NCBI RefSeq assembly: GCF_006345805.1
Contig: NC_043012.1
Span: forward strand, 9,796,001-9,860,000
DNA length: 64,000 nucleotides
Reading direction: 5' to 3'
From: Octopus sinensis
Taxonomy: Eukaryota
In this document: positions 9,153 to 61,878 of the stretch, piece by piece
How the letters are laid out: each line of letters begins with the position of its first letter
Numbering within the stretch: the first letter of the stretch is position 1
Translations under genes and position numbers: made by a program
The notes under the pieces: generated by a model
Told to the model about the DNA's origin: nothing
The model's input: the letters and a program-made list of their open reading frames with translations, nothing else
The model's database searches: none

Positions 9153-9305
9153 GTGACGTATTTTTGCCATTTCATATGGCTAACCCCTAAGGGTGGATGC
9201 TACTGTAGTTTTTAGCCCCAGGAGGACACACTCCTCCAGCTGGCCATAGACAACACTATCTGTGTCCTGTCAGTATTTGCAAAGGGAAGTCATCCTTCCC
9301 GTCTT

Positions 9306-9375
9306 CAACTTATGATACACACGGACTCAAGTTTCGAGGTATTGACCTCTCGTCAGCGTGTGACAATCATAGTTG
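9306..9375 (-). ncRNA. Type I hammerhead ribozyme, copy 1 of tandem unit
   Basis: Reverse complement: CACACG-CUGACGA-GAGG-ucaaua-CCUC-GAAAC-uuga-GUC-CGUGUG; complete core and extended stem I (CAACU AUGAU/AUCAU AGUUG). Confidence 0.9.
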
Positions 9376-9659
9376 TCGCCGAGAATTAGATTTCCTTCAC
9401 AAATACTTATACTTTTTCCAGCGTCCACTGTCGCTGATATTGAAAAAGTGAAATCAAACAATGATAAATATCAAAGTGAGTTATATACAGTAGCGGTAAC
9501 ACATCGTGACGTATTTTTGCCATTTCAATATGGCTAACCCCTAAGGGTGGATGCTACTGTAGTTTTTAGCCCCAGGAGGACACACTCCTCCAGCTGGCCA
9601 TAGACAACACTATCTGTGTCCTGTCAGTATTTGCAAAGGGAAGTCATCCTTCCCGTCTT

Positions 9660-9729
9660 CAACTTATGATACACACGGACTCGAGTTTCGAGGTATTGAC
9701 CTCTCGTCAGCGTGTGACAATCATAGTTG
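9660..9729 (-). ncRNA. Type I hammerhead ribozyme, copy 2 of tandem unit
   Basis: Reverse complement: CACACG-CUGACGA-GAGG-ucaaua-CCUC-GAAAC-UCGA-GUC-CGUGUG; palindromic ACUCGAGU stem III. Confidence 0.92.
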
Positions 9730-9863
9730 TCGCCGAGAATTAGATTTCCTTCACAAATACTTATACTTTTTCCAGCGTCCACTGTCGCTGATATTGAAAA
9801 AGTGAAATCAAACATTGATAAATATCAAGTGAGTTATATACCGCTACTGTATATAACTCACTT

Positions 9864-9908
<45 letters not shown>

Positions 9909-21817: not shown

Positions 21818-21833
21818 TAATAATAATAATAAT

Positions 21834-21867
<34 letters not shown>

Positions 21868-21879
21868 GTAATAATAATG

Positions 21880-21945
<66 letters not shown>

Positions 21946-21948
<3 letters not shown>

Positions 21949-22312
21949 GTGCATCTCTGATCACGAGCAGAAGTAGTGGGGGAGCATCATAGCCATGTGT
22001 TGAGAGGGATTCTTTGGGGTTTGAATAGTTCACTTCTGGAAACATGGGTGGTTCTTTCAACATCCTTAAACAACCCTTATTCAGGGACCGTTTGAGCGGG
22101 ATGGGTTACTCAACCTGAAAAAAATTCTAACTGGGCCCCACCTGCAAGGTCATGTGCTGTTTATCTTGATATGAGATCACCATGTCACGCACATATGGTT
22201 GTGATGCATGTGCCTGGTGTATCCTTATCAGACGGGTAGTCATGATGGATATATTGGGCTTCGTATATTTTACCCCAGTGTCACTTTGATGGCACGAACT
22301 GCTCTATCACTC

Positions 22313-22353
<41 letters not shown>

Positions 22354-22379
22354 TGATGATAATAATAATAATGATGATG

Positions 22380-22411
<32 letters not shown>

Positions 22412-22801
22412 TAATAATAATAACAACAACAACAACAACAACAACAACAATAATAATAATAATAATAATAATAGCATCATAGCCATGTGTTGAGAGGGAT
22501 TCTTTGGAGTTTGATTAATTCACCTCTGGAAACATAGGTGTTTCGTTCAACATCCTAAAGCAACCCTTATTCAGGGACCTTTTGAGCAGGATGGGTTACT
22601 CGACCTGAAGAAAATTCTAACTGGGCCCCACCTGCAAGGTCATGTACTGTTTATCTTGATATGAGATCACCATGTCGCGCACATATGGTTGTGATGCATG
22701 TGCCTGGTGTACCATTATCAGACGGGTAGTCATGATGGGTATATTGGCTTCGTATATTTTACCCCAGTGTCACTTTGATGGCATGCACTGCTCTCTCACT
22801 C
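21946..22801. mobile_element. Two tandem truncated copies of the (TAA)n-associated element
   Basis: 21946-22313 and 22473-22801 match the reverse complement of 58114-58470; separated by (TAA)n. Confidence 0.75.
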
Positions 22802-22875
22802 AATAATATAATAATAATAATATAATAATAATAATAATAATAATAATGATAATAATAATAATGATAATAATAATA

Positions 22876-22931
<56 letters not shown>

Positions 22932-22954
22932 TAATAATAATAATAATTATAATG

Positions 22955-23040
<86 letters not shown>

Positions 23041-38349: not shown

Positions 38350-39778
38350 TATTCTATGTTTGACTTTTGCGTTACATTTGCACAAGCTGGCTCCAAGTCT
38401 CACCCAGAGACCTCAAGAGACAACAAGTTGGAAGTTCGTGTTGGTGTTATGCCTAGGGTGCCATATATTTGGTTTTGTACTTAGTGTTGTACTAGTGAAT
38501 GCCTAAAAAACCATACGAAAATTGTGTTTGTTTTAAAACTTGAGATTACATAGAAAGTATTTTGCGTAGGATATGAGCAGTTCCCATGAGCACTACCTTT
38601 TGAATTTCTGCCATTTTTGAGTTTCCTGGTATCTGCGTTAGGTAGCAATCAGCCCCTTTTGCTATCATTCCCAGGGCACCTATGACTACAGGTATTGTTT
38701 TAGTCTTCAGGGTCCACATTTTGCTGATTTCTATTTCAAGATCTTTATATTTGCTCAGTTTTTGGTAGGTCTTGACAGATACGTTTATATCGATTAGGAC
38801 AGTCATATCAATGAGGAGGCATGTTCTTTGTTTGAAGTCTTTCAATATGATGCCTGGCCTATTTGCATCTATCTTTCTGTCAGTTTGAATGGGGAAGTTC
38901 CAGAGGAGTGAGAGGTGGTCATTTTCAAGCACTGGAGGTGGTTTGTGTTCCCACCAATTTTTTTTATGGTGCAAGTCCAGGCTTGTGAAAATTACCCAGT
39001 GAATATATTGTGCAGCTCTATCATGCTTGTTGAGGTACTCTGTAGGCGCGAGAAGACTGCACTTGGAGACAATATGATCAATGGTTTCATTTTGTTGTTG
39101 ACATACTCGATATGTTGGGCGACTGACGTTCTTTAATATGTTGGCATTGTAGTTCCTTGTAGGTAGGCATTGATCTTGAGCTGCTAGGATAAACCCCTCT
39201 GTTTCAGATTTTAAGCCAGAGGCCATTAGCCATTGATAGGCCAGGGCTTTGTCAACATCTGCATTATTCGCTCTGTTTGGGTATTTGCCATTGAGAGGTT
39301 TTTCTTGCCATTTATCATTCAGAATATTTAAGGCCGCAGATTTAGCACGGGTTTTCATGCGCTTAGCTTTTTCTGTGCTTGTTTCCTGTATGTCTAAACC
39401 GAAATTTGTTTTATTCGGAATTCACTTAGATATTCCTTTGCCTGTTTTGTTACTGAGTATGATACTTACTTGTGTTCATGTTTTGAGACAAGTTTTAACA
39501 TCCAGTCCCCAGAGGTTTTGCAGGTAGGTGTCTAAGGCAATTGTAGCAATCTTCATTGTTATTGCCAGTTGCAAAAGACAACGGCCTCCCTCTTTTCTTG
39601 GCAGATAAAGTCGTTCTGTATCTGCCTTAGGGTGGTGCATTCTATGCATTGTCAACGGTTTTCGTATTTTTCTGTCAAGATTACATATTTCAGTAATTGA
39701 CCAGTTAACGATATTGAAACAGTAAGTCACGACTGGTATGGCTAAAGCATTGATCACTTCGATCCTGTTTCTCGCATT
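38350..39778 (-). mobile_element. R4/Dong-like LINE 3' fragment with frameshifts
   Basis: ORFs 39476-39757 and 38546-39358 homologous to the 23287 ORF; 3' end adjoins (TAA)n. Confidence 0.9.
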
Positions 39779-40113
39779 GGCGTTGCTCGGATTTGTTTTC
39801 TTTTCGACCCTTTAGAATTGGAATTTTTGAAAAGTAAAACGTTTGCATTATGTAGTTTGTTATTCTCTTTAAGTGGCGACACAGTAGTCAAAAAATTGTA
39901 AAAAAACTAGGGATTTTCATAGAAAAAAAGCACCAAAAATAATTTTTGGTTTTAATTTTAATTTTTCTTCTATGGAATGAAGAGCAAGCCTTTTTCTATC
40001 ATACTCTCAATTTTGGTCAACTTTCGCCGCAAGGTCTCGGAGGAGATAGTGTTAGTTGAAGGCTACCAAACCTGCCACACACACACAGACAACTCCAGGT
40101 TTATATATAAAGA
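39779..40113 (-). mobile_element. Non-autonomous Helitron, 3' end truncated
   Basis: Reverse complement starts TCTTTATATATAAA and ends at ccgagcaacgcc, as in the 11996 element. Confidence 0.7.
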
Positions 40114-40731
40114 CTACATGCAATTTCATTCGTTTCCATGCAACTTAAGCTTCAAACAGTTTTAAATACTATATATAACTCCTAGTTTTCAAACCGTTTT
40201 AAATAGTATATCTATCTCAAGTGTGTGTGTGTGTGTTTCTATGTGTGTGTGTGTAGTGTGTGTGTGCGTGTGTGTGCGTGCGTGTAATCACTCATATATA
40301 TGCACACATAATTACAGTCCATGTACGTAAGGCAGCGAGCTAGCAGACACGTTAGCACGCCGGACAAAATGCTTAACGGCATTTCATCCGTCTTTAGGTT
40401 CTGAAAATCGTATTCTGCCGGTGTTGACTTTACCGTTCATCCTTCCGGGGTCGATAAAGTAACTACCAGACGACTCTGGCCCTACCCCAAATTTCCTTGC
40501 CTTGTGCCAAAATTTGAAATCCATATTTCATGTATGCATTTCTCTGGTCCATTCACACGATTGATTTCTCTATAGAATGGTACAAGCATTAACGCAAAAC
40601 CCAGCGGAAAGATCTGAGTCGCAACATGAATTTTCTATCCATTTTGTGTACGTTTATGAATCTTTCTATTAACCAGCGTTACAAATGTAGCGGAGCGATA
40701 CATGCTCCAAAAAAAAAATAATACATATATT

Positions 40732-41140
40732 GGCTGTGTGGTAAGTAGCTTGCTAACCAACCACATGGTTCCGGGTTCAGTCCCACTGCGTGGCATCTTG
40801 GGCAAGTGTCTTCTGCTATAGCCGCAGGCCGACCAATGCCTTGTGAGTGGATTTGGTAGACGGAAACTGAAAGAAGCCTGTCGTATATATGTATATATAT
40901 GTATGTATGTGTGTTTGTTTGTGTGTCTGTGTTTGTCCCCCCAACATCGCATGACAACCGATGCTGGTGTGTTTATGTCCCCGTTACTTAGCGGTTGGGC
41001 AAAAGAGACCGATGGAATAAGTACTGGGCTTACAAAAAGAATAAGTCCCGGGGTCGATTTGCTCGACTAAAAGGCGGTGCTCCAGCATGGCCGCAGTCAA
41101 ATGACTGAAACAAGTAAAAGAGTAAAAGAGTAAAAGAGTA
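40732..41140 (+). mobile_element. CORE-like SINE
   Basis: Full copy with tail ggcggtgctccagcatggccgcagtcaaatgactgaaac(aagagta)n. Confidence 0.8.
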
Positions 41141-41408
41141 AAGAGATATGCATATGAAAGAACGTCTGTAGAAAAACGGGGAAAAGGGAAGTTTTCGCGA
41201 ACCATATCTTATTTTTGTTGCTGAGAACCAGCTAAGTTGATCCATTTACGACGGGCTTCCCCAGCCAAAGGACTATAAAACATCTCGCAAAGAATGAAGA
41301 AATTTTGAAGTTTCATTGACGTTTGCTATCTGCTGAGTGTCTTTACATTATATACATACATACATACATACATATATAATACATATATACATACATACAT
41401 ATACATAC

Positions 41409-41453
<45 letters not shown>

Positions 41454-41467
41454 ATATAATATATATA

Positions 41468-41566
<99 letters not shown>

Positions 41567-41573
41567 GATATAT

Positions 41574-41609
<36 letters not shown>

Positions 41610-41756
41610 GGCCTGCTAGGTAGCCGGCCAGAATGCTAGAAATAGATCATCAACGATCAAACTACAAGGGAAATTCTCTAGAGGAAGAATTCAGCGAACA
41701 CCAGAACCAGATTTGGCGGGCAGGACATATGAAAAATTAAATAAAAAACAGACTTA

Positions 41757-41832
41757 AATGCATACCTCGGTTTCGGTCTTAACAAAAGAATTACTTGCAT
41801 AATTCAAGTGTCCGTGACTTCTTCAGTACATT
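41757..41832 (-). ncRNA. Type I hammerhead ribozyme with long stem II insert
   Basis: Reverse complement: AAUGUA-CUGAAGA-AGUC...GAAUUA-ugcaag-UAAUUC...GACC-GAAACCGAGGUA-UGCAUU. Confidence 0.7.
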
Positions 41833-42532
41833 CGGTCCTCGAGATGCAAACCGCAAGACTAACCCCAGCTCTCTGTGTCAAGACAGACACATGCTTAGTC
41901 TTACTGATTACATCGGGAATAAAATTTCAAATGTCTTGGTTCCGGCGCGCTAAGAGACTCCTGAAGCGAAGGGCTGCAGTGAATAATTCACTGTGGGTAA
42001 AGCTTACTTCTAGGGAACGTATTTATTTAAATATTTAAAAATTGAGGGAGATAAATTAATATTAATTTTAATATCAATTTAAAACCAGTAGTCCAGCATT
42101 CAAAAAATCTGAGGAGTCAGAGAAAATTCAAATATATGTGTATATTGGCAGGGCTGGCCTGCTAGGTAGCCGGCCAGAATGCTAGAAATAGATCATCAAC
42201 GATCAAACTACAAGGGAAATTCTCTAGAGGAAGAATTCAGCGAACTCCAGAACCAGATTTGGCGGGCAGGACATATGAAAAATTAAATAAAAAACAGACT
42301 TAATATTAATTTATCTCCCTCAATTTTTAAATATTTAAATAAATACGTTCCCTAGAAGTAAGCTTTACCCGCAGTGAATTATTCACTGCAGCCCTTCGCT
42401 TCAGGAGTCTCTTAGCGCGCCGGAACCAAGACATTTGAAATTTTATTCCCGATGTAATCAGTAAGACTAAGCACGTGTCTGTCTTGAAACAGAGAGCTGG
42501 GGTTAGTCTTGCGGTTTGCATCTCGAGGACCG

Positions 42533-42608
42533 AATGTACTGAATAAGTCACGGACACTTGAATTATGCAAGTAATTCTTTTGTTAAGACCGAAACCGAGG
42601 TATGCATT
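42533..42608 (+). ncRNA. Hammerhead copy with core mutation (CUGAAUA), probably inactive
   Basis: Inverted copy of 41757-41832 with G8 changed to U. Confidence 0.6.
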
Positions 42609-42900
42609 TAATTCTGTTTTTTATTTAATTTTTCATATGTCCTGCCCGCCAAATCTGGTTCTGGTGTTCGCTGAATTCTTCCTCTAGAGAATTTCCCTTG
42701 TAGTTTGATCGTTGATGATCTATTTCTAGCATTCTGGCCGGCTACCTAGCAGGCCAGCCCTGCCAATATACACATATATTTGAATTTTCTCTGACTCCTC
42801 AGATCTTTTGAATGCTGGACTACTGGTTTTAAATTGATATTAAAATTAATATTAATTTATCTCCCTCAATTTTTAAATATATATATATATATATATATAT

Positions 42901-43116
42901 ATAATGTAAAGTATAGAAGCCATCTTATCATGGCTAACCACATTGGGGAGGGGGTGTTACTGTAGCTTTATAGCCCCAAGAGATCTTCGTCTCTAGCTGG
43001 CTTTAGATACAATATGTCAGCTAGAGACGAAGATCTCTTGGGGCTATAAAGCTACAGTAACACCCCCTCCCCAATGTGGTTAGCCATGATAAGATGGCTT
43101 CTATACTTTACATTAT
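42901..43116. repeat. Inverted repeat (99-bp arms, 18-nt spacer) related to the 9153 unit family
   Basis: Arms 42901-42999 and 43018-43116; shares gccat..atggctaacc..gggtg..tactgtag..tagcccca..agctgg with the start of the 9153 unit. Confidence 0.85.
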
Positions 43117-43270
43117 CGAGCGATTACTGTTTCAATATCATTCTGAGATTTAATTATGCTATATATATATATATATATATATATATCTATACATATACAT
43201 ATAAGCATTTTTTGTGTAATAAGATAAAAAAACAAGGCTGTGTAGATATTAGAACATTTATAGATAGAAG

Positions 43271-43323
43271 GTCTTACAGCTGTTTTTAGGATATCTATTA
43301 ATAATATCCCTTCATCGGAGACG
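43271..43323 (-). ncRNA. Degenerate hammerhead-like motif (Penelope-type)
   Basis: Reverse complement: GUCU-CCGAUGA-A-GGGAUAU...AUAUCCU-aAAAAC-AGCU-GUA-AGAC; palindromic stem III; core substitutions. Confidence 0.5.
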
Positions 43324-44425
43324 GTGTGAGAGGATAGTTAAGCCATAGTTAGTTTAGATGTGATACAAAATAGAGTGAGGTGGAGGAAAGAAAATAGATG
43401 CAAGATATGTATGGGTATTGAAGTTGTAAATCCGTTTTATAGGCATAATGGTATACATGCAATATTCCAATATCCTATGAGTAATGTCCAAAAGTCCAAC
43501 AGAGCTTAATATGATTTCTTCCAAATATAGAGCTTATAAGCAATGTAAGATTCCCTTAGGAGTGAGATCCAGCAGATTTTTAAACTTGGTTATTCCCAGT
43601 AGGGAATTTATATACAGTGTTGTAGAGTCAAAGGTTTGTATTTAAAGTGACCTAAAAATAGGGAGTGTATTAGTAAGGTCAAATCGAAAACAAGAAGTGA
43701 GGAGTGAAGAAAGAGAGAAAAAAAAGGAAGAGAAAAATGAGAAGAGAAAGAAACAATGAAAGAGAAAAGAGAGAGAAGAAGGAGAAGAAAGTAAGAAGAA
43801 GATTAGTAAAAAATAACAAAATAATAAAATAAATAAAAACCTTGAAGAGAAGAATAAAAGGAATAAAGAAAAAAGAAAAAAGGAAATGAAGATATAGATC
43901 AGTCAGTGGTCAGTGGAGATAATTTGAAAGTAATTCACCCTTTATATTCCCACTCCTACTATATTGGCTATTCCCTTGGATAACATCGGTGGTGTAGAGA
44001 GGGCTGGTTGGTATGCAGGAGCGACTACTGATCTTCCATACATAACCTTGCACAGAGGGGAACCTTCTTAGTGCAATCCCATGGTCATTTATGAGGTAAG
44101 GGTCTCTTTAATCTTTACCCATAACAGTAATAACTAAACAGTGTATTGTGCGTTTTATTGTGTTTATGTCATGCACAGTATTTCCAGGAACTTGATACAA
44201 ACTGTTTGTAGTACAAAGATGATTGTGAACTACTCACTTACGGCATGATTCACTGATGTGAAAGACACTAGCAGAACACCTAAGTTTAGAGATGCCAAAG
44301 CGAAGTGTTTGATACTATTATAATATTTGTGTGACTGTGGTTAGAATATTGTCGAGATCCAAAGTCTAAAGATAGCCTATTCATTCAAAATGTGTATTGT
44401 GTATATGTGTGCGTTGATGAGTGCG

Positions 44426-51782: not shown

Positions 51783-53790
51783 GCCTTTGCACAGCTTCTA
51801 ACGCTGGAGATGTACTACAGTGTCAGCTGTTCACTACCAGTGAACTAAAGTAACACCTCTTATTTTTCGAGTCACCTTCCGGAGTATTCAAGCGGTTCCA
51901 ATCAGTGCTGTTTTCTGCAATTGCTCCACCCTTACTGCAGCCCCTATTTGCTCCACGTACTTTTCGAGATTTTTGCTCACTGTTCCCAGGGCTCCGACAA
52001 TTATTGATAGTACTGCTACCTTTTTTAACAACCACAACTGCTTAACTTCCCAAGCTAACCTGTCATATCTGTCGACTTTTCTTTCTTCCTTATCGCATGC
52101 CTTGTTGTCAGCTGGGCATGCAATATCTATGATCCAGCATAGTTTGTTTTCTTTCTCAATTAAGACTATGTCCGGCTTCCTATTCTCAATCTCATGTTCG
52201 CACTGAATCATAAAATCCCATAGGATCTTTGCATTACTATTTTCGACAATGCCTTCAGGTTTGTGGTCGAACCAATTTTTTGCTCTGTCAAGTCCATACT
52301 TGTTGCAAAGTGTCCAGTGGACAAGCCTGGCTATATTGTCGTCATGTCTCTTATATTCCTTCTGGGCTAGTGGCGTACATTGGCCGGTAATATGCCATAC
52401 AGTTTCACCGTCTTGTCTACAGATTCTGTACTTATCACTTTCTGCGGTGTTGTCTATTCTATATTTTATGTAGTTTGTTCTTAGTGATTGCTCTTGGGCA
52501 GCACAGATTAGAGCCTCCATTTCCGGTTTTAAATCATTTTTAGTCATCTACAGCCGTCTTTTTTTCTCAGTCTGTCTTATCTTCAACAATACTATGAAAT
52601 TTGCATGCATTCTTTTCTTTATCCACCTATTTTCTGTTTCATCCGTTTTCTATTTCTTGTATAGTGCTTATCTTTGCAATCTTTCATCCTACACAAGTCT
52701 GATCTTCCTACTTCTAATAATAGCGGTTCTGTGGAATTTTTCATATACTATGCTATGTTGTATTCTTCTGCTTTAATGCTGTGTTCGCATCCAATAAGTC
52801 CTCTTCCCCCTCTTTTTCTTGGTACATACAGTCTGTTTGTGTCACTTTTTGGGTGGAGAACCCCCGTATCTAGTTAGCAACTTCCTTGTCATTCTCTCTA
52901 AGCTGTTTAGTTCGTCTGCTGTCCATGAGATTACCCCTGCTCCATATCTAAGGAGTGAATTCGCCCAGGTGTTGATAGCTTCGATCTTATTTCGTCCGTT
53001 TAATTTCGACTTAAGGATCAGTCTTTAGTCTGCGTAAGTACTCCACCTGAAATTTTTCTGTCATTTATTTCTCCATTAATTTATCCATTTCCAAAATCCC
53101 CAAGTACTTAGCCCGTCTCTTCTATCTGCTTCATAATCTCCCCCGACCGTATCATTAGTCCGTCCATACATTTGATTTTGCCTCTTTTCAATACGAACAC
53201 ACTACACTTTCTCAGTCCGAACTCCATTCTGATATCAGCACTGAAGGTATACACCGTATCAACGAGGAAACTGACTTGGGCTTCATCATTACCATAAAGT
53301 TTGAGGTCATCCATGAAAAGCAAATGGTTGACTTTTTGTTGGTGGCTTTTGAATACATACCCATCTTTTGCTTTCCTCAGAATCAGTGTCAGTGGTATCA
53401 AGCACAGTAAAAAGAACAGTGGAGACAGGCTGTCCCCTTGGAAGATGCCCCTCCTAATTTCTACTGTCCCTAAACTTCTTCCGTATGCTGTCAGGTCCGT
53501 CCTCCAATTCACCATACTTTTTCCAAGCCATCGCTCCACATTCGATGCAATCCCAAACAGGTTCATACACTCCATAATCCAAGAATGTGGAATCCTATCG
53601 TACGCCTTACGATAGTCGACAGCATGGCTAAGTTATTTTCCTCCTCTTGCAGTCTCTGAGTACAGTTTTATCTATCAAGACTTGATCTTTGGTACCTCTG
53701 CACTTACGCTTGCAATCCTTCTGCTCATGTGGCAGGATTCCATTTTTTTCTAGATATTTGTACATTGACTCTTCGAGTATTCCAGTCAAT
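51782..53790 (-). mobile_element. R4/Dong-like LINE, degenerate RT plus RLE
   Basis: RGIFQGDSLSP, HLLFMDDLKLY, AQEQSLRTNY, RKPDIV; 3' end in (TAA)n. Confidence 0.9.
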
Positions 53791-53794
53791 GTCG

Positions 53795-53832
<38 letters not shown>

Positions 53833-54211
53833 ATTATTATAATTATTTATTCTTTTAATCTCAGTTTTCTCTTGTAATTCCTGAAGTCTTGTATGCGTAG
53901 CGGGCTTGCTGCTTGCATCCTACGGTACCATGCGATATGTACTTTTCAAATGTCTAATTCTTTCCTCGTTGTTCTAGCTATGTAACGGAGGCAAACCGTC
54001 TGTACTAGTTGCCCTGGGAATTCTAATCCGATTTTCTTTTTATTCCACTTAATGCCATTTGATACTATTCGCAAGAACCAGCAATAATTCACACTGTCTT
54101 CACCTTCATATAATTGGCACTATCTTCTTTCTTCATACAACTGGTACTATCTTCACCTTCTTGATATAATTGGCACTATCTTCACCTTCTTCATGTAATT
54201 GGCATTATTAC

Positions 54212-54272
<61 letters not shown>

Positions 54273-54694
54273 GTTGTTGTGTTGTTGTTGTTGTTGTTGT
54301 TGTTGTTTTGTTGTTGTTATTATTATAATTATTTATTCTTTTAATCTCAGTTTTCTTTTGTAATTCCTGAAGTCTTGTATGCGTAGCGGGCTTGCTGCTT
54401 GCATCCTACGGTACCATGCGATATGTACTTTTCAAATGTCTAATTCTTCCTCGTTGTTCTAGCTATGTAACGGAGGCAAACCGTCTGTACTAGTTGCCTG
54501 GGAATCTAATCCGATTTTCTTTTTATTCCACTTAATGCCATTTGATACTATTCGCAAGAACCAGCAATAATTCACACTGTCTTCACCTTCATATAATTGG
54601 CACTATCTTCTTTCTTCATACAACTGGTACTATCTTCACCTTCTTGATATAATTGGCACTATCTTCACCTTCTTCATGTAATTGGCATTATTAC

Positions 54695-54758
<64 letters not shown>

Positions 54759-54780
54759 GTTGTTGTTGTTGTTGTTGTTG

Positions 54781-54845
<65 letters not shown>

Positions 54846-61713: not shown

Positions 61714-61878
61714 AGATTTAATTTAAAAACATATTTTTTTACTTTTCATTTGTCTTGCTCACTTACATTTCTGGTGTTTGCTAAATTTTCTAGAGAACAA
61801 TTCTTAGTGGTAAGATCATAGCGGATCTATTTCTAGCATTAAGGTGTCCACATATTGGTATTCCCTCTTATATGTATG

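Follow-up and report, generated by a model that had tools for sequence, protein, structure and literature searches.

The window, a 64,000-nt stretch of the Octopus sinensis genome (NCBI RefSeq GCF_006345805.1, contig NC_043012.1, positions 9,796,001 to 9,860,000 of the forward strand), contains at 41610-42880, between (TA)n runs, an insertion made of two inverted arms of a ~546-bp unit, which span 1.27 and 1.06 units and begin at different phases, as the first-pass annotation had described with coordinates that hold (Table 1). The host genome is 2.7 Gb in size and rich in microsatellites. Positions within the unit (p) follow the ribozyme sense and are obtained as p = 42156 - window position. 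The overhang of the left arm beyond one unit forms a direct repeat (41610-41757 / 42156-42303, spacing 546). The longest open stretch on the sense strand is 41 codons, an antisense stretch of 97 codons (41745-42038) has no start in its first third, and GC content is 38.6%.

Table 1. Features of the inverted insertion and its flanks (window positions; p, position in the 546-nt unit; arrows follow the unit in ribozyme sense).
Feature	Position	Strand	Remarks
(TA)n-rich run, left flank	41349..41609	none	likely insertion target
Left arm	41610..42303	minus	694 nt, 1.27 units, p399 -> p546 -> p546
Hammerhead, type I, intact core	41756..41833	minus	predicted cut after GUA, 41763/41762
Internal copy of the tail within the left arm	42031..42132	minus	site A p24 to site B p125
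Head-to-head junction	42300..42303		4-nt overlap, TTAA, self-complementary, p399-402 / p91-94
Right arm	42300..42880	plus	581 nt, 1.06 units, p91 -> p546 -> p125, outer end at site B
Second hammerhead	42532..42609	plus	G8U at 42544, predicted inactive
Terminal tail	42770..42880	plus	~100-110 nt, site A (42770-42779) to site B (42880)
(TA)n run, right flank	42877..42903	none

The two arms differ at 6 of 581 positions, with 3 more differences in the TA flank, and both carry a private change at p147 and a rare change at p446. A fold-back or assembly artefact is hardly credible, since the arms differ in sequence and in their ends, the layout recurs in 84 pairs with different junctions, and the head-to-tail joint is present in contigs assembled from four independent runs, which come from four studies and from organisms A and B. 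Part of the unit was present in 19 of 24 runs, none of which is recorded as RNA. One contig, from run X5, starts at 41753, 9 nt from the predicted cut, and was set aside, contig ends not being evidence of cleavage.

Several other repeats lie in the window. A 353-bp hammerhead family is represented at 9153-9873 on the minus strand (CUGACGA ... GUC; 1,404 candidates), also in a head-to-head layout, and a 536-bp sister family (2,940 candidates) at 61715-61875, as a short arm with its own hammerhead, in which U.U stands at the base of stem II and the cut follows GUU, and with a ~100-nt tail. Adjoining the insertion, 42901-43159 is a perfect 99-bp inverted repeat with an 18-nt spacer that resembles the 353-bp family, its right arm extending ~44 nt further to a TA run, like a tail at one end. 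A decayed repeat on the minus strand at 43200-44100 ends in a degenerate hammerhead-like motif near 43280-43325, and gave no match to the PLE (Penelope-like element) proteins tried. Runs of (AAT)n/(TTG)n flank tandem repeats of 483 and 490 bp (53790-54818 and 21819-22963). On the minus strand at 38546-39811, two open stretches (291 and 111 codons) resemble, by eye, the C-terminal region of a LINE reverse transcriptase (RT), and a short repeat at 40725-41145 may be akin to octopus SINEs.

The minus-strand hammerhead (41833->41756) has its stem I at p323-329/394-400 and the core CUGAAGA at p330-336, and shows the enlarged stem II noted in the first pass, with an A337.C381 pair at its base and an extra 7-bp hairpin inside loop II, followed by GAAAC-CGAG-GUA, which places the predicted cut after p393. 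The elements of a type I hammerhead (CUGANGA, GAAA, NUH and three stems) are all found in the sequence. The Rfam hammerhead models gave no match at the gathering score in the whole window, nor at E<=10 in 41600-42900, and the 81-nt motif folded no better than shuffled sequences (z -0.36). The assignment is supported instead by conservation and by pair-preserving changes across copies. Over 88 loci, p330-336 and p382-393 are almost without change, N7 being free (A 56, U 34), while in the stems pairs are exchanged as pairs (325:398 from A-U to U-A in 7 loci, 339:379 from U-A to C-G in 9, and 328:395 from U.G to C-G in 14), and the pair 337:381 at the base of stem II is A.C in 72, A-U in 10 and G-C in 4, all of these counts (87-88 loci) being inflated, since the loci are kin and the independent events few. 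The core is kept across subfamilies, and cleavage is thus likely to be under selection.

The core change noted in the first pass in the inverted copy is present, the plus-strand hammerhead reading CUGAAUA. G8 is an essential core base, and a G8C change abolishes cleavage according to the accessible text of PMC11167929. G8U was found in 1 of 63 loci; being private to one locus, it is ruled out as a functional variant and most likely arose after insertion.

The window element is a member of a young, ORF-less family of several hundred copies, of the non-LTR retrozyme or non-autonomous Penelope-like type. A search of the genome with the unit gave 1,255 candidates, of which 40 were scored, and two exact 42-mers of the unit occur 561 and 317 times. 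For the analysis of ends, 112 independent loci were mapped with the tail as anchor (first set), and 29 fresh loci with a different anchor, beside site A. Family loci are 83-100% identical to the window copy, and their arrays reach 4.8 units. In comparison with the sister family, the tail is the most conserved segment (78% vs about 69%). An arm with two whole hammerheads is present at 28 of 140 loci; the window locus has none and is therefore likely a dead end. The 546-nt element itself is an ordinary passenger.

The outer ends of the arms fall into two clusters, site A (p13-25) and site B (p111-132), about 100-110 nt apart, and TA repeats adjoin 205 of 213 A or B ends. Among 84 pooled head-to-head pairs, 71 had one end of each kind, none had two A ends, none had two B ends, and 13 had an end at neither site, where the tail-anchored sample under-represents A+A and not B+B. 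The pooled set leaves out duplicates (L106 and the second pair of L137), both pairs of L113 and the three-piece locus L239, and uses a site A range widened from p10-30 to p9-30, by which L243 counts as A+B. Before removal of these rows the first set gave 59 A+B, no A+A, no B+B and 14 pairs with an end elsewhere (n = 73), and the separately anchored fresh set gave 13 A+B, none alike and 3 other (n = 16). Single arms ended 32 times at B, 11 times at A and twice elsewhere in the first set, and 10 times at B and 4 times at A in the fresh set. The window locus is one of the exceptions, combining site B with p546; this outer end (41610) stops 15-24 nt before the usual site A is reached and recurs at arms of L001 and L117. 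In the 353-bp family the ends are 40-50 nt apart and 12 of 12 pairs have one of each (23 of 30 loci counted, after exclusion of overlaps, of two pairs that contain an additional inner piece and of one pair cut at the edge of its locus), and in the 536-bp sister family, with ends about 100 nt apart, 4 of 5 pairs are A+B (17 of 20 loci).

The inner ends, by contrast with these fixed outer ends, lie all round the unit (230 arms). The median arm is 455 nt, 80 of 230 arms exceed one unit and the longest reaches 2,598 nt; the distribution of lengths is well described by an exponential that is not cut off at one unit (KS p 0.35 and 0.51), and lengths are uncorrelated within a locus (rho 0.12). Of the reading first proposed for this locus, reverse transcription of a self-cleaved circular or multimeric RNA, the more-than-unit template stands on these arm lengths, while a circle and a linear multimer are not separable by these data. 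The unit is indeed circularly permuted at the window locus, as was also stated, and the permutation follows from outer ends that are fixed at two sites and inner ends that are free.

Particular weight had been given to the breakpoint of the minus-strand copy, 5 nt past the predicted cut. Its position at p399 is correct, and the TTAA overlap makes the true end 5 to 9 nt past the cut. That the 5' end produced by the hammerhead determines the position of the junction, so that breakpoints mark the cut, was weighed against all mapped arms. Inner ends at p391-399 numbered 8 (3.9 expected per base at risk, p 0.045), those at p391-417 numbered 24 pooled (11.6 expected) and 20 in the first set (9.3 expected), and those before the cut, at p364-390, numbered 6 (11.7 expected), a roughly two-fold excess after the cut and a deficit before it, in a p391-417 interval chosen after the first set had been seen and in counts that enter both L243 arms at p394, although one arm begins there. 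Five of the 17 pairs whose arms share an inner end have it at p394-417. The clearest single case is L243, where one arm begins exactly at p394, the first base after the predicted cut, and the other has three tandem copies of the 12 nt that follow the cut, and then 10 nt from before the cut, which looks like RT stalling at a cleaved RNA end and suggests that cut RNA likely acts as template on occasion. Against a general role of the cut, 146 of 230 arms read across it with only 8 ending at p391-399, the excess was not replicated in the 29 fresh loci (4 vs 2.4 expected at p391-417, p 0.22), the stretch after the cut is AT-rich, and the partner arm in the window ends at p91. A stronger hotspot lies at p444-454 (18 vs 5.4 expected, pooled) and was replicated in the fresh set (5 vs 1.15); p440-449 forms a perfect palindrome with the common T at p446. 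The proposal that breakpoints are set by the cut is thus not borne out and is, as a general account, distinctly improbable; we infer that cDNAs stop at the cut site in only a minority of insertions. The window breakpoint itself, at 5-9 nt from the cut and on TTAA microhomology, may reflect a cleaved template, and chance together with TTAA explains it about equally well. Over all 84 junctions, 24 had an overlap, 19 were blunt and 41 had extra bases.

The relation between the two arms of a locus was analysed on 120 young arms from 74 loci. Divergence was 1.5% between units inside an arm, 1.7% between arms of a locus and 2.7% between arms of different loci, and the proportion of comparisons in which a locus-private variant was shared was 17% for the two arms of a locus and 0.4% between loci. 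At 12 diagnostic sites (excluding p16, for an end effect, and p302/304), agreement was found in 158 of 167 comparisons within arms and 178 of 202 between arms of a locus, compared with 18% between loci; mixed haplotypes were present at 4 of 44 loci. Later gene conversion or read polishing in assembly could account for part of this likeness. The two arms stop at the same template point in 17 of 71 pairs (4.2 expected, maximum 13 in 20,000 shuffles), and 20 of the 71 pairs have arms of which neither could be contained in the other, which excludes copying of one arm from the other without trimming.

The linked p302/304 pair (window 41854, 41852) differs between units within several loci, on different backgrounds. 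With the change, p301-306 becomes fully complementary to hammerhead p329-334. The variant matches older subfamilies, and templated correction, conversion or polishing are possible sources.

These features were compared with a model in which a single cDNA, started at B, folds back at a palindrome and is copied back, the endonuclease trimming the second arm at A. Palindromes at inverted junctions have been read as self-priming (PMC3846280, accessible text) and the tail as endonuclease resolution (likewise PMC8557442), the model accommodates the 17 same-end pairs and a further 29 in which A is nested in B, and several same-end junctions lie at palindromes (p447, p473-481, p498). It is strained by the 20 of 71 pairs, and the window locus, that cannot be nested either way, and in the in vitro system of PMC11167929, as far as its accessible text describes, RT starts at either end of the tail. 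We consider the fold-back of one cDNA improbable.

The reading that best joins the fixed ends to the likeness of the arms, and to which we give about an even chance, is that a Penelope-like RT-endonuclease acting in trans primes both cut ends of a (TA)n target on one RNA, one at each site. The copies are dispersed and ORF-less, with a conserved hammerhead, (TA)n flanks, fixed A and B ends and free inner ends, and each inverted locus has one A and one B and arms that are alike. In this two-primer model a source array would be transcribed and the transcript cut by the hammerhead into 546-nt monomers, which a host ligase would close into circles; the enzyme, probably as a dimer, would bind the tail and cut both strands of (TA)n; site A would serve for the extension of one 3'-OH and site B for that of the other, with each cDNA going round the template over a random length; and the two cDNA ends would be joined head-to-head via microhomology (TTAA at the window locus) or templated fill-in. 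Several of these steps have precedents, each given here as described in the accessible text of its source. A Poseidon PLE cuts AT-rich DNA in vitro on both strands and extends both, with RT starting at two internal RNA sites that bound the tail and a dimer predicted (PMC11167929), cleaved and circularised retrozyme monomers occur in coral, mussel and axolotl (PMC7229834), and PLEs have been proposed as mobilisers of retrozymes (PMC7229834; bioRxiv 10.64898/2026.07.22.740005). The same Poseidon system used uncut RNA, its hammerhead was dispensable, and its start sites were equal between strands (PMC11167929).

With the same two primers on one RNA, the template could also have been a linear transcript that reads through a tandem array and was left uncut, in which case the hammerhead would serve for occasional processing. 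This variant is unlikely, and deserves serious consideration: in the accessible text of PMC11167929 mutation of the hammerhead left insertion in vitro unaffected and uncut RNA predominated as substrate, the weak stem III suggests poor cleavage of the monomer (PMC4209133, likewise in its accessible part), and the mixed haplotypes and the p302/304 pattern fit a template of non-identical units. It is opposed by the agreement of units inside an arm at the diagnostic sites, by the conservation of the core across subfamilies, with cleavage likely under selection, and by the expectation that 5'-truncated copies of a linear array would shrink with every generation, yet arms reach the lengths given above. 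The template was in effect more than unit length, and because truncating copies of linear arrays would shrink, a circle is somewhat more likely than an uncut multimer. The full form of the two-primer model, in which one dimer and a single circular RNA with two fixed, different start sites, rolling from both, mobilise retrozymes, the tail being the spacer between the active sites, has in our estimate somewhat less than an even chance. Against the two-primer model, 13 of 84 pairs, the window pair included, have an end at neither site; the p302/304 differences within loci are not explained by one monomer template; arm lengths are uncorrelated within a locus, and haplotypes are mixed at 4 of 44 loci; and no autonomous partner was found in the GIY-YIG stretches compared, the partner being inferred.

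The search for such a partner covered the coding Penelope elements of the genome, in which there are 5,029 GIY-YIG candidates and intact RT + GIY-YIG frames of 775-781 aa that carry the CxxxxCxxC motif described, in the accessible literature, for Neptune-type endonucleases. By nucleotide comparison, none of 30 + 12 GIY-YIG stretches among the 5,029 candidates shares a pseudo-LTR (pLTR) or unit ends with the family. A solo Penelope pLTR structure had been suggested as an alternative, with a search for adjacent RT/GIY-YIG ORFs in other copies as a check. Solo pLTRs left by truncated copies of an autonomous Penelope element would agree with the architecture, which is that of PLE insertions, and with the existence of these intact frames. 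The period is 546 nt, the arrays, of up to 4.8 units, are ORF-less between hammerheads, no RT + GIY-YIG ORF lies between the repeats as in an autonomous PLE, none of the screened family loci continues into an ORF of its own, and the PLE coding pieces found near 7 of 112 loci were, where inspected, separate or nested insertions; the solo pLTR origin is accordingly very improbable.

Candidate partners were rejected as follows: a 72-nt, 78% match at L190, which is a separate fragment 1.3 kb from the RT piece; the coding piece at L029, with unrelated spacer and a TA run between; a loose contig end, which proved to be a neighbouring repeat; and a partly inverted coding element of Neptune-like type at L279:3740-6240, which is nested in a copy of the sister family. 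A young Neptune-like family is represented at L181-L185 (e.g. L181:2532-4877) by several intact, nearly identical RT + GIY-YIG frames of 781 aa, and near its 3' end carries a hammerhead-like motif, recognised by eye, with UUGAUAA instead of CUGANGA.

In twin priming of LINE-1, both target ends prime on one RNA, giving an inversion joined by microhomology, with the second primer at a variable internal site and arms that do not overlap. The present family differs from LINE-1 in that neither site varies and the two arms span the same sequence.

Metazoan non-LTR retrozymes (Cervera and de la Pena 2020, PMC7229834; Li, Clavereau and Pollet 2026, bioRxiv 10.64898/2026.07.22.740005), as described in the accessible text of these sources, are alike in their ORF-less tandems with one type I hammerhead per unit, GC below 50%, a short stem III, a mismatch at the base of stem II (U.U in axolotl HHR_Amex2) and the presence of PLEs in the same genome. 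They differ in unit size, 150-450 bp as published (PMC7229834) against 546 nt here, and the present arrays, known from sequence alone, are short (<=4.8 units), 5'-truncated, often head-to-head, with fixed ends and (TA)n targets. The word 'inverted' does not occur in the main text of PMC7229834, and occurs in bioRxiv 10.64898/2026.07.22.740005 only in a reference.

The insertions of PLEs (Arkhipova 2013, PMC3846280; Craig 2021, PMC8557442; accessible text) share with the present family partial tandems, an inverted truncated head-to-head copy, extension at one end only, palindromes or microhomology at junctions, microsatellite targets and non-autonomous forms (Chlamys MRC1), and 5' truncation, partial tandems and the head-to-head inverted copy were found here in 84 pairs. 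An inverted copy with a 30-40-bp tail at one end is thus already known (PMC3846280, PMC8557442). The tail is about 100-110 nt here against these 30-40 bp, an ORF is absent, and for the restriction of the extension to one end the present family supplies a count (71:0:0) and a link to a shared template. Poseidon of Anolis (PAc; Frangieh 2024, PMC11167929, in its accessible text) resembles the family in that, in vitro, RT starts at two internal sites on either side of the tail, the target is AT-rich, both strands are extended and a hammerhead lies upstream of the start sites; unlike here, the PAc sites are adjacent, 111-118 nt into the ORF region, and the bulk data show no difference between strands, the pairing of sites per insertion not being reported there. 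The 100-nt tail, the count of one-of-each ends and the shared-template evidence were not found in the openly accessible literature, on which subscription papers and supplements (e.g. Fig. S2 of PMC11167929) may bear.

The origin of the tandem and inverted insertions of PLEs, and of their tail, is named as open in the accessible text of PMC8557442 and PMC11167929, and the link between retrozymes and a PLE enzyme has so far come from co-occurrence and phylogeny. A family that is young, short and present in many copies, and whose start sites lie far apart, gives a rule based on counts, of one A, one B and one template, in which the proximity of breakpoints to the cut site is a minor effect. On a 546-nt substrate the two starts are easily resolved, and the question becomes a test with two marked RNAs. 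If the two-primer model is true, the strict one-of-each ends in three families would be a genomic footprint of two-site priming.
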